Source of the DNA: Enterobacteria phage P4
Strand: one strand, 5' to 3'
DNA length: 11,624 nt
Sequence record: NC_001609.1
Within the stretch, counting starts at the first letter, position 1. Each line of letters opens with the position of its first letter. The translations under genes and the position numbers were made by a program. Of the stretch, positions 3,966 through 9,492 are shown piece by piece. Below the pieces are notes generated by a model. It was not told the origin of the DNA. It did not search any database and worked only from the letters and a program-made list of their open reading frames with translations.

Positions 3966-4077
3966 TGATATCCGGATTTCAACGGACAACCTCGGAAGAC
4001 GCAGGACGAAAAAATCGCTGCAAGCATTGATTTTAAAGGGATATTTGGACTTTCTCGGATGGTCTTGGAAGTAAGAA

Positions 4078-4101
4078 TGGTGCCGAAGGCCGGACTCAAA
4101 C
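4078..4101 (-). other. attP core region with homology to the 3' end of a tRNA (leuX-type tRNA-Leu)
   Basis: TGGTGCCGAAGGCCGGACTCAAAC is the reverse complement of a tRNA T-arm/acceptor 3' end (...GTTTGAGTCCGGCCTTCGGCACCA). Only the 3' segment is present, as expected for a phage att core that regenerates the tRNA 3' end on integration. Confidence 0.55.
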
Positions 4102-4153
4102 ATCAAAATAAGTTAATGATAAAAAACAAATAATAAAACACAACAATGAAATA

Positions 4154-4173
4154 TGCCCCCTTTTGTGCCCCCA
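4154..4173. repeat. Two further (A/G)TGCCCCC repeats on the far side of the att core
   Basis: ATGCCCCC at 4154-4161 and GTGCCCCCA at 4166-4173, the same motif as the 3916-3965 cluster, bracketing the tRNA-like core. Confidence 0.5.
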
Positions 4174-4290
4174 CTGTTTTTCTGACCAATCTATTTTCAG
4201 CCCATCAATAAATCGGAAAGTTAAATCATTTTTAATCAGTAAGTTTGGATCCGTAGCTCGGATCCAAACCAGTGCATCTTTTATCCACAT

Positions 4291-4590
4291 AAAAAATTTT
4301 TTTTCGAAAGAACTGTTCACACTGTTCACCTTTCTGTTTTCTCCTTTTATTTCAGAGTGATAGGTGGTGAATAATGGGTGAAGGGTGAACATTCGATTCT
4401 TCACCTCCGGCATTCTGCCGATGTGACTCATACCGGTGATTAATCCTCCGCACTGAAATCACTCAGGAAGAAAAAAGTTTTTTTTGATTTGATTGTTCAC
4501 ACTGTTCACCTTTCGTTTTTCTCTTTTAATTTCAGTGTGATAACGGGTGAATATACGGTGAAGGGTGAACAGTGGATTGTTCACCTTCGG
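4291..4590. repeat. crr (cis replication region): two 120-bp direct repeats carrying alpha-binding type I iterons
   Basis: Copies at 4291-4410 and 4471-4590 are near-identical, with an exact 180-bp period (ACTGTTCACC at 4321 and 4501) and a 60-bp unrelated spacer. Each copy holds several TGTTCACC / GGTGAAYA octamers in both orientations. Confidence 0.75.
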
Positions 4591-4603: not shown

Positions 4604-4628
4604 AAAAAAAGACCGGCAGATGCCGGTC
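4604..4628 (-). terminator. Rho-independent terminator downstream of alpha
   Basis: Hairpin GACCGGCAGATGCCGGTC at 4611-4628 followed on the minus strand by a 7-U run (complement of A7 at 4604-4610), a few nt past the alpha stop (4636-4638). Confidence 0.65.
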
Positions 4629-4635
4629 AGGTGGG

Positions 4636-6969
4636 TCAGGCTGTTGTAGGGTCGTCACATTTTGGCAGCCAGTCGCCGTAGCTTTCCTCTTTCAGCGTCA
4701 GGTTGGTCTGTATCCCCTGTTTGGTATGGCGTTTCTCGTAATTCAGTCCGTATTCCTTCAGCATCACCGGCAGCCCCAGCCCGAACATTTTCAGACTGAG
4801 TACATTCCGGTAGCCGTTTGCCTCCATGTAGGCCAGATAGGCGTGATAGAGGTATTTACGGTAATTGCGCGGGATGATACTGGCGTTCCCCATATACATG
4901 CCGCTGGTCTGCGGCAGGGTTTCCAGATAGCCGATAAAATCAAACGTCGGGTCGGCATCCCGTTTGATGTTCAGTGCCTCGTCTGAGTTCTGCTGGGACT
5001 GAAGCAGTGACCGGGCGAGCATCGGGTCGCTGAACTTCTGCATCAGGTGACGCACGATGACCGCCAGCTCGCGGGTGATTTTGTCCTTAAGCTGCGGGTC
5101 GCGCTCCTGCGGGGCTATCTGTTCCGGGAAGTGAATAATCACCCGTCGGCGTGACACGCCGCCGCTGCGGTCGGTGAAGCGCATCGGGTTATTGTTCACG
5201 GCCAGAATCACCGCCGGGATGTGCGTGGAGTACGCATCCCGGTATTTCGGGTCAACGGACACCGCATCGCCGCCGGTGATGGCCTTGAGTCCGGCACCGT
5301 CGCCGCTCCATTTTTCCTGGTCCGGCAGGCGTATCAGTGAGAAGCCAGTTAACGCGGCACGTTCACGCGGGGATTCCAGCGTCTCGATGGTGGCCGACGT
5401 GGCGTTATCCTCCCCGGCCAGCAGGGTGGCTATTTCGGCCATGATACTTTTGCCGCTGCCGCCGGGACCGGTCACCTCCAGAAAGAGCTGCCAGTCGTAG
5501 CGGTTTGCCAGCACCATAAACAGTGCAGCCAGAATCACGTCGCGTTTTTCCGCACGGCCACCGGCGGCACGGTCAAGCCAGCGCCAGAAGGCGGGGGCGT
5601 GGGTTTCCAGCGTTTCACCGTCCACCGGCGGGGTGAAATCCACATCGCACAGGGTGCGCATCCAGTGTGACGGACTGTGCGGGTGGAACGTGCCGTTCTG
5701 CGTGTCGAGCACGCCGTTACGAAAGCCAATCAGGCGGCGGGAGGGGGCTTCCTGCTGCGGAATAATCAGCTTCAGGGTATCCACCACGGAGGCCACCTTC
5801 CCGGAGGAGAACGGCGCACGCAGACGCTGAAACAGCCCGGCCACATCCCGGGCAAAGTCCTGTGGCGGCAGCACCTTCCAGACACCATTTTCATAGCGGG
5901 ACAGAAGCTGGCCGTTGGCATCGACCGCGAGCGCCTCGCCGTAATGCTCATAGATACGCATGGCCTTTTCGCTGGTACTCATGGCGGAAAACTCCGCTTC
6001 GCTCATGGTGTCGAACGGGCTTTCAGCCGGTGGCCGGATGGCATCGTAAATGGCCTTACGGGTGGCCTCCCCGCCGTACTGCGTGAAGGCATCATTCCAG
6101 TCACCGAAGACCGGCGGCAGGGCAACAACACCTTCACACGCATCTGCGGCTGCGGCGGCTTTTTTCTGGCCGTCACCACTGAGGTCACGGTCAGCGGCAA
6201 GGACAATCTGACAGGCGGGGTGCTTCTGCCGGGCAAGGCTGGCCAGAGAAAGGAGGTTCACGGAAGAAAGCGCCACCATCACCGTTTCACCGGTCAGGTG
6301 ATGTACGGTAAGTGCGGTCGCGTATCCCTCCGCTATCCACAGACGTTTTCCGGCCTGATTCTGTCCTTCAAGGGTGTGACAGGTGCCCCTGACCTGTCCG
6401 CCTTTCAGGGTGCGCTTACGGCCGTCAGCACTGATTAACTGAAGGTTAACCAGTTCGCCGCTGTCGTCATACAGTGGCACCACAAGGTCACCGGCGCGCC
6501 AGCTCACGCCACCGGCTCTGTGTGTGCCGGTCAGCATCCGGCATTCCCGGCCGGGAAAGCCCTTGCGGGTCAGGTAGGCGTTACCGGTTCCGGTACGGGT
6601 TTTCGCCATCAGGGTTTGTGCCAGTGCGGCGGCGTTCTTCCGGGCAGCGTCTGTTTCATCAACGGCGGCGGTCGTCACTGCCGGGTCAGCCGGTGGCAGG
6701 CTGCCGGTCACGGCAGCCACCTTTGCGGCCGCGTCGGACGGGGAAACACCAAAAACCTTTTCAACCAGTTTCAGGCCGTCACCGGCACCACACTGATTGC
6801 AGTACCAGGTGCCGCGCCCCTCCCTGTCATCAAAACGGAAGCGGTCACTCCCGCCACAGACCGGACAGGGCTGATGACGGTTCTTCAGCACCTGAATCCC
6901 CAGCGCCGGGAGAATACGCGGCCAGTGGCCGAGCGCATGGCTGACGGTGGCGGTTACGTTCATTTTCAT
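4636..6969 (-). CDS. alpha: Alpha protein: bifunctional DNA primase / helicase with C-terminal iteron-binding domain (P4 replication protein)
   Basis: 777-aa ORF. N-terminal zinc-ribbon CPVCGG...(x)...YCNQCG, primase region, then Walker A GPGGSGKS (D5-like helicase). AAGGAG SD 8 nt upstream of the ATG at 6969. Length matches recalled P4 alpha. Confidence 0.92.
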   Translation of the reverse strand: MKMNVTATVSHALGHWPRILPALGIQVLKNRHQPCPVCGGSDRFRFDDREGRGTWYCNQCGAGDGLKLVEKVFGVSPSDAAAKVAAVTGSLPPADPAVTTAAVDETDAARKNAAALAQTLMAKTRTGTGNAYLTRKGFPGRECRMLTGTHRAGGVSWRAGDLVVPLYDDSGELVNLQLISADGRKRTLKGGQVRGTCHTLEGQNQAGKRLWIAEGYATALTVHHLTGETVMVALSSVNLLSLASLARQKHPACQIVLAADRDLSGDGQKKAAAAADACEGVVALPPVFGDWNDAFTQYGGEATRKAIYDAIRPPAESPFDTMSEAEFSAMSTSEKAMRIYEHYGEALAVDANGQLLSRYENGVWKVLPPQDFARDVAGLFQRLRAPFSSGKVASVVDTLKLIIPQQEAPSRRLIGFRNGVLDTQNGTFHPHSPSHWMRTLCDVDFTPPVDGETLETHAPAFWRWLDRAAGGRAEKRDVILAALFMVLANRYDWQLFLEVTGPGGSGKSIMAEIATLLAGEDNATSATIETLESPRERAALTGFSLIRLPDQEKWSGDGAGLKAITGGDAVSVDPKYRDAYSTHIPAVILAVNNNPMRFTDRSGGVSRRRVIIHFPEQIAPQERDPQLKDKITRELAVIVRHLMQKFSDPMLARSLLQSQQNSDEALNIKRDADPTFDFIGYLETLPQTSGMYMGNASIIPRNYRKYLYHAYLAYMEANGYRNVLSLKMFGLGLPVMLKEYGLNYEKRHTKQGIQTNLTLKEESYGDWLPKCDDPTTA

Positions 6970-6983
6970 GGTGTTGTTCTCCT

Positions 6984-7304
6984 TCAGTGCAGTACCGGCG
7001 CTTTTATGTGACGGGCACAGAGTTCATCCATCACAACCAGCCCGAGAAAGGACAGCGACGGCGCGGCCTTCAGGGGGCCGGATTCCATTAAATCTTCCAG
7101 CAGGGCACAGGCTATCTGACGCCCTTTTTCCTCACCGTGCTGGCGCAGATAAAAGCCTTCCAGCTCAGCGGCGATGGCCGCCTCCAGTGACTCAAGGGTG
7201 AGATGCGGGTAGCGGTGCTGACGTTCGCACACGGTCAGCCAGGCACAGGCGACAGCGCGACGGTAAAGGGCAGCGCGTAAGACGGGCGGTAAGGGTGTTT
7301 TCAT
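6984..7304 (-). CDS. Hypothetical protein (106 aa) immediately upstream of alpha
   Basis: ORF with ATG at 7304 preceded by GGGAGAA SD; stop 14 nt before the alpha start. Function not recognised. Confidence 0.65.
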
Positions 7305-8419: not shown

Positions 8420-8505
8420 GATGGCGATAGCCCAGACGGGGGTGAGAATACCGGCTTCACAGGATACCGGCCAGCCCGGAGGCTGCCCCGCCTGAGCTAC
8501 CATTG
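8420..8505 (-). ncRNA. cI: Candidate cI immunity RNA region (approximate)
   Basis: Untranslated leader between the predicted PLE and kil. Contains a segment (plus-strand GGGGGTGAGAATACC, 8437-8451) complementary to a 10-mer direct repeat GTTCTCACGC found upstream (8660-8669) and downstream (8408-8417), matching the seqA/seqB/seqC logic of P4 immunity. Boundaries are approximate and from memory. Confidence 0.3.
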
Positions 8506-8689
8506 ACTCTGCGGCATAATGAGCGGACGCGGGCAGGATGCACGGAATGCCATCTGCACGACTGACCACACACCACACCATAATCTGGCGCTCTGTGGCA
8601 TTGATTGCGACACAAAAAAAGACGCGTGGCGCGTCATATGTCGCCTGTGAATTGCTCGGGTTCTCACGCCCGGCTGCCGATTTTGCGGC

Positions 8690-8729
8690 AGGCGAAAAAC
8701 TATATCCGCAAATGCCGGAAAAAGGCAAG
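8690..8729 (-). promoter_or_regulatory. Candidate early leftward promoter PLE (sigma70-like)
   Basis: On the minus strand, TTGCCT (-35, plus 8729-8724), about 18-nt spacer, TATAGT (-10, plus 8704-8699); predicted start near 8690. Lies just downstream of the vis stop. Confidence 0.3.
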
Positions 8730-9209: not shown

Positions 9210-9308
9210 TTGTAATTTTTATAGTGAAATACAAATCGTTTCTTCTTATTCATTCCCGGCGAATTAATAAAAACAAACAGTAGTAAACAGCACAAAAAGC
9301 CCATCAAC

Positions 9309-9414
9309 GGGTGAACAGTGGTGAACAGACGGTGAACAGTCATTACTGCGATTGTTCACCCTTTAACTTACTGTATTACTTATCTTTTTTATTAAGGTGA
9401 ACAGAGGTGAACAG
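9309..9414. other. ori: origin of replication with six alpha-binding type I iterons and an AT-rich spacer
   Basis: GGTGAACA at 9310-9317, 9320-9327, 9331-9338, 9396-9403 and 9406-9413, plus inverted TGTTCACC at 9354-9361. AT-rich stretch 9362-9395. Same octamer as in crr. Confidence 0.65.
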
Positions 9415-9492
9415 TAAAATATAAAAAAACAAACAGTAAGCCGGTTTTTCCTGCGACCTTTTCCTGGCTTGCCGGTCTGAGGATGAGTCTCC

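Follow-up and report, generated by a model that had tools for sequence, protein, structure and literature searches.

The window analysed here, 11,624 bp in length, is the complete genome of satellite phage P4, and the P4 GenBank records X02534, X05623, M27748, and X05947 tile the whole of it at 99.5–100% identity. On the minus strand lies the alpha gene (4636 to 6969), an ORF that is annotated as a CDS in X05623 and encodes the 777-aa protein reported to bind the iterons described below. Its neighbor on the same strand is ORF106 (6984 to 7304; Pfam DUF5375, E = 2.9e-63), or cnr, which we take to be a copy-number regulator working with alpha. The cnr gene is the P4 member of a family that 90% of elements carry between epsilon and alpha (PMC8628076). 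The Pfam domains found in alpha (Zn_Ribbon_Prim, Toprim_3, D5_N, DUF5906, and Pox_D5) describe a protein with a zinc-ribbon/Toprim primase, a D5_N/SF3 helicase, and a C-terminal DNA-binding domain. A structure search identified residues 671–770 (4660 to 4959, minus strand) as the origin-binding winged-helix domain of PDB entry 1KA8 (E = 1.1e-63); it is through its winged-helix domain that alpha binds the P4 origin repeats (PMC4234260).

The end of the alpha transcript is marked by an intrinsic-terminator-like hairpin (4611 to 4628, minus strand), which was recovered independently of the X05623 feature "put. alpha transcription terminator". Beyond the hairpin lie two repeat units of 120 bp each, which correspond to the cis replication region, crr. 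Unit 2 (4471 to 4590) is on the alpha side and is referred to here as proximal; unit 1 (4291 to 4410) is on the att side and is distal to alpha; the 60 bp between them (4411 to 4470) are unrepeated. Both units were detected by a repeat scan, are annotated in X05623, and were matched by an nhmmer profile of the unit (E = 8e-30 for unit 1 and 3e-29 for unit 2). The order of alpha ORF, terminator-like hairpin, and crr agrees with the original prediction, which had placed the repeats downstream of alpha.

The two units form the single large direct-repeat family in the window. They align without gaps over 120 nt, are 82% identical, and are offset by 180 nt from start to start. When all offsets were scanned exhaustively, the pair beginning at 4291 and 4471 scored highest of all 120-nt direct pairs, at 98 of 120 matches and an offset of 180; the best pair in each of 12 first-order Markov resamples of the window had only 56–61 matches of 120. 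Alignment of the units together with their flanking sequences demonstrated that the similarity ends at the 120-bp borders. Comparison of the window with itself thus revealed the repeat that had been predicted. It had been described as two near-identical 120-bp units 180 bp apart: the pair and its offset are real, but "near-identical" is a generous term for 82% identity.

The record X05623 ("Bacteriophage P4 alpha gene and cis replication region crr") is 100% identical to the window. Its two repeat_region features, both labeled "direct repeat 1 cis replication region (crr)", fall at window positions 4291–4410 and 4471–4590, and it also annotates six "direct repeat 2" octamers, one of which is labeled "ori repeat 1". 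The sequence features expected of P4 crr are present: two direct repeats of ~120 bp with ~60 bp between them, located immediately 3′ of alpha, and a type I iteron octamer, TGTTCACC, common to crr and ori. Comparison with the P4 crr of X05623 (Flensburg and Calendar 1987) gave identical sequence and identical coordinates; the two are the same object, with no difference between them. Because X05623 places crr at exactly these coordinates, the identification of the repeats as crr was right and was already known. The segment from 4291 to 4590 is the known crr of P4, an auxiliary cluster of alpha sites described in 1987, and as such is ordinary. GenBank has carried its annotation since the 1980s, P4-based vectors routinely retain it as a cis element needed for replication, and as a discovery it amounts to little. 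In the papers whose text was searched, crr and its octamer received incidental mentions only; an engineering preprint, for example, lists crr as "cis required region for replication".

Unit 1 is overlapped by an ATG-initiated ORF of 111 aa (4096 to 4431, minus strand), which extends from the spacer through the unit to the attP core. In one E. coli element (L002), RefSeq has a short hypothetical protein at the corresponding position. Both observations would fit a repeat that encodes protein as part of this ORF. The ORF, however, spans unit 1 only and has no Pfam match, and unit 2 contains no ORF of at least 80 aa. Many relatives have a single unit or have the unit in another context, and the conserved positions cluster at octamer cores of either orientation and follow no codon pattern. 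We give a coding repeat next to no credence, and ORF 4096–4431 is probably not a gene. A search of Rfam produced no match within crr. Elsewhere in the window it matched C4 antisense RNA (8420 to 8507, minus strand; 74.9 bits) and the Hfq-binding RNA isrK (8615 to 8692, minus strand; 60.8 bits); these positions make up the P4 immunity RNA region, which has no relation to crr.

When both strands of the whole window were searched, TGTTCACC was found 11 times: five times in 4323–4585, six times in 9310–9413, and nowhere else. By chance, 0.30 occurrences would be expected, and a count of 11 was never reached in 200 shuffles. Each crr unit contains six sites with a TTCAC core, and their order (+ + − − − +) is the same in both units. 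In unit 1, the tandem iterons TGTTCACA and TGTTCACC, 9 bp apart (4314 to 4330, plus strand), are followed by three reverse-oriented iterons, TATTCACC, CCTTCACC, and TGTTCACC (4366 to 4391, minus strand), and by the variant TCTTCACC (4398 to 4405, plus strand), which is a "direct repeat 2" in X05623. Unit 2 has the same tandem pair, TGTTCACA and TGTTCACC (4494 to 4510, plus strand), and the same three reverse-oriented iterons, TATTCACC, CCTTCACC, and TGTTCACC (4546 to 4571, minus strand); its last site is TGTTCACC itself (4578 to 4585, plus strand), the octamer that X05623 labels "direct repeat 2 (ori repeat 1)". Altogether, the 12 crr sites comprise five perfect octamers and seven variants. 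Spacings between iterons within the crr units are 9, 43, 11, 7, and 14 bp, with mixed orientation, as compared with 10–11 bp at ori. The octamers had been predicted to occur in both orientations and to include the form GGTGAAYA; they do lie in both orientations, and the GGTGAAYA wording is accurate because the crr sites include GGTGAACA and GGTGAATA.

The prediction that the same octamer defines ori also held. The ori sequence (9310 to 9413, minus strand), at a distance of 4.8 kb from crr, contains six exact copies of TGTTCACC, five on the minus strand and one on the plus strand, arranged around a 35-nt spacer. Comparison of the reverse complement of ori with the crr units revealed a shared order of parts: an A/T tract, two tandem iterons, 35 nt of AT-rich DNA, and inverted iterons. 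In P4, a profile of the crr unit, built from alpha-downstream sequences only, gave a full-length match to ori (positions 9300–9432) on the other strand (E = 2.8e-6); matches of the same kind were obtained in 34 of 68 relatives. Upstream of alpha, no full-length profile match on the same strand was found in P4 or the 68 relatives. Judged from these alignments, ori is an inverted copy of a crr-type module of ~110 bp. In P4, ori and crr are alike in their iteron word and in the layout of the ~110-bp module; they differ in that ori is inverted, is present in single copy, has six perfect iterons out of six, and has an AT-richer center.

If each crr unit copies the ori module, crr might be a second or back-up origin. 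The full-length match of the unit profile to ori in P4 and the 34 relatives and the identical order of parts in the two layouts are what such a reading would lead one to expect, but three differences make it very unlikely. The central spacers of the crr units are 69–71% AT, versus 83% at ori. Perfect octamers make up five of 12 sites in crr, versus all six at ori. Finally, ori is the reported start site of synthesis; published mapping reportedly puts initiation at ori and has both ori and crr needed in cis.

DNA resembling crr was present in 1,130 of 5,426 complete E. coli genomes and was always chromosomal. Six of those E. coli loci, together with 80 loci containing alpha relatives (57–99% identity) from many Enterobacterales genera, were used for comparison. 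The unit profile detected a crr unit ~50 nt past the alpha stop codon, the position at which unit 2 starts in P4, in relatives with as little as 57% alpha identity. The conserved columns of the unit are the six TTCAC/GTGAA cores and the terminal A/T tract. The 93-nt iteron-bearing part, measured from the first iteron to the tandem-iteron end, was of constant length in 111 of the 112 unique sequences; the A/T tract adjoining it varied from 10 to 18 nt (viral and metagenome loci L089–L288). The conserved entity is evidently a unit of ~115 bp with fixed internal geometry.

The iterons of crr and ori also vary together. In a de novo comparison made with no prior motif, the top 7-mers common to the alpha-downstream regions and the upstream ori regions were of the TGTTCAC type. 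Lineages with TGTTCACT or CCTTCACC had the same variant at both crr and ori, and the fraction of T at iteron position 8 was correlated between the two (Spearman 0.76, p = 4e-8, n = 37; not phylogenetically corrected). Such co-variation would be expected of a single protein that recognizes crr as well as ori. Alpha has T727, N750, and mostly R760 in relatives with T-ending ori iterons (TGTTCACT); in relatives with iterons ending in C, these residues are mostly K727, K750, and K760. Residues 727, 750, and 760 lie inside the 1KA8 domain and are candidates for specificity residues, in a pattern that phylogeny confounds.

In most E. coli P4-like elements (H23–H61), homology to P4 begins exactly at 4291, the outer edge of unit 1. 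The ~200 bp between the attP core (~4075–4094) and crr are variable in most E. coli elements. Many P4-like elements contain cargo of 0.7–3.7 kb, which separates either alpha from the first crr unit or two units from each other (loci L032, L035–L039, L042, L045, L048, L058, L060, L062–L065, L068–L074, L079, and L084–L086). The proteins encoded by this cargo are of defense type and include an AriA-like AAA_15 ATPase, SIR2, a retron-type reverse transcriptase, PDC-S15/FRG, PIN_12 with DUF3800, an Mrr-like nuclease (Mrr_cat), and a Pua-like domain with metallophosphatase. The inserts occupy the same interval as the minor "primase-att" defense hotspot of P4-like satellites (PMC13586616); the hotspot paper does not mention crr, whereas the inserts are placed here relative to the crr units. 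P4 itself is free of cargo at the "primase-att" site. Elements were delimited at alpha in a 2021 survey. The true replicon boundary lies past alpha and can enclose defense cargo, which is missed when elements are cut at alpha.

Two further ideas about the units and their spacing were considered. In the first, the distant units are leftovers of tandem satellites. A C-terminal remnant of alpha was found directly before the distant unit only at L063, and cargo-split units are therefore not generally leftovers of this kind. In the second, the "empty site" model, P4 once had cargo between a unit of a proximal class and a unit of a distal class, and its 60-bp spacer is what the loss of that cargo left behind; profiles of the two classes did not sort the split units cleanly, and the model is unsupported.

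The attP core is only ~200 bp away from crr, and units in relatives bracket variable defense-gene cargo, an arrangement that would suit repeats acting as integrase arm-type sites or as recombination flanks of attP or of the cargo hotspot. We consider such a role highly improbable. The word that recurs in the units is the iteron of ori, and its variant follows that of ori and not the integrase; the unit has kept its linkage to alpha; and in most E. coli elements the homology breaks at 4291, on the att side. The crr units could, incidentally, be used as homology for cassette exchange.

The original prediction had taken the exact 180-bp spacing to suggest a helical-phase constraint for looping. 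This part of it is not supported by the relatives, in which the period ranges from 156 to 186 bp, reaches 330 bp, or is replaced by kilobase gaps, and in which 36 of 78 loci have a single unit. For the analysis of periods, viral and metagenome contigs were scanned for the conserved tandem-iteron signature, and 124 unique two-unit crr sequences were obtained. Their in-register periods were 156, 158, 165–171, 176–183, and 186 bp, with modes at ~169 and ~180–181. Periods of 177 and 182 bp, which are a half-turn apart, were both frequent. The differences in period are located largely in the A/T homopolymer tract (10–18 nt) and also in the spacer. The distance between ori and crr in relatives varied from 4031 to 5018 bp, with no quantization.

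In a small sample, the periods (166–168, 177, and 180–181 bp) did fit near-integral turns, as strict helical phasing would require, but the larger sample filled the ranges 165–171 and 176–183 bp. Strict phasing was rejected because of this larger sample, the homopolymer variation, and the 330-bp and kilobase spacings. The pooled compact periods cluster within −0.2 to +0.3 turn and avoid anti-phase. Because these periods derive from only about two length classes, the clustering is inseparable from ancestry; the compact class, with its roughly two independent length classes, may have a weak preference for near-integral turns. The exact 180 bp is the state of P4 and not a conserved constraint; in relatives, the inter-unit spacing is flexible.

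The number of units was determined in a census of 78 alpha-ascertained loci for which 3.6 kb or more of sequence past alpha was available. No unit was found in six loci, one unit in 36, two compact units in 20, two units 0.68–2.8 kb apart in 14, and three units in two; units 0.7–2.8 kb apart with genes between them were found in 16 of the 78 elements. The six relatives in the first group had no recognizable crr unit within 4 kb of alpha; either their unit has diverged past detection, or crr is not universally required. When only the first 700 nt past alpha were considered, a single unit was counted in 30 elements whose alpha ORF is intact and whose ori has five or more iterons; a wider profile search identified a further unit 1.2–2.8 kb downstream in some of them. 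Because 36 of the 78 elements have one unit, the duplication is dispensable, and a single crr unit appears to be the common natural state.

Proximal units from different loci are 84–89% alike, versus 56–82% similarity to their own distal partner. Because proximal units resemble one another more than they resemble that partner, the compact duplication is one old event. In L011 and L016, the distal unit (~222–329 nt past the alpha stop codon) is 56–58% identical to the proximal unit and has lost its TTCACC/GGTGAA cores; decay of this kind suggests that the second crr copy can be dispensed with. The element of Edwardsiella hoshinae (L057) has units at 58–169 and 388–499 nt past the alpha stop codon, with a period of 330 bp and 96% identity. 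This is a recent tandem duplication of independent origin, separate from the old duplication of the P4 clade. Duplication of the unit has thus occurred on two occasions, one in the P4 clade and the other in this Edwardsiella element.

Variation in unit number, from one to three among elements, and the conserved partner cnr nearby are compatible with a different role, in which crr is chiefly a negative element for copy number or incompatibility, alpha is titrated or "handcuffed", and unit number sets copy number. Iteron arrays of plasmids such as P1, F, and RK2 have a titration or "handcuffing" role, and arrays located outside origins in other replicons provide a general precedent. A chiefly negative role is nevertheless unlikely: crr is described as required for replication and not as inhibitory, both by its name in X05623 and in the preprint, and most elements, single-copy ones among them, keep a unit beside alpha. 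The region may have a dual role, positive and negative, with copy control as the secondary function.

We conclude, with high confidence, that the segment from 4291 to 4590 is crr: a non-coding, duplicated module of ~115–120 bp past the alpha terminator, with six iterons per copy (consensus TGTTCACC) for the winged-helix domain of alpha; that ori is an inverted third copy of the module; that crr aids the firing of ori, reportedly by looping; and that the duplication is inessential. The four alternatives, namely a second origin, purely negative copy control, integrase or recombination sites, and a coding repeat, find little support. Sequence identity, shared and co-varying iterons, unit geometry, and homology to ori were seen here; binding, looping, and the cis requirement come from the literature. 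The primary P4 papers reportedly found that crr is needed in cis together with ori, that one 120-bp repeat is enough, that crr is functional in either orientation, and that alpha binds the octamers at crr and ori and forms a loop of the intervening DNA. Looping and the enhancer-like action of crr are attributed to Flensburg and Calendar in 1987, Ziegelin et al. in 1993, and Diaz-Orejas et al. in 1994.

For crr as an aid to ori firing, the mechanism may be pictured as follows. The C-terminal winged-helix domain of alpha would bind the six iterons of each crr unit. Alpha bound at crr would then contact alpha bound at ori and loop out the intervening DNA, as published work reportedly describes. 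The crr region would act in the manner of an enhancer, stabilizing or completing the assembly of alpha by which ori is opened and synthesis is primed, and Cnr would modulate the binding of alpha and thereby set the copy number. The idea can be carried further. Throughout the family, ori and crr may represent one ~110-bp module for alpha assembly in opposite orientations, a "split palindromic origin", in which oppositely oriented alpha hexamers on distant modules are looped together into a bidirectional double helicase. Firing would be tuned by how many crr units there are and how they are spaced, whether compact with near-integral turns or split by defense cargo. We regard this extension as speculative and rather unlikely to be correct. 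The comparative results may be of use in P4 phasmid engineering and in delimiting P4-like satellites.

Separated clusters of initiator sites are found in other replicons. In EBV oriP, EBNA1 binds the family of repeats and the dyad symmetry element, and in plasmid R6K, pi mediates looping between the gamma iterons and the alpha and beta origins. P4 would resemble these systems in having one initiator and two separated clusters of the same site, with the distal cluster needed in cis and reportedly acting by looping. The proteins and sequences of EBV oriP and R6K are unrelated to those of P4. P4 further differs in that its initiator is the primase-helicase itself and in that its distal cluster is a diverged copy of the origin module.
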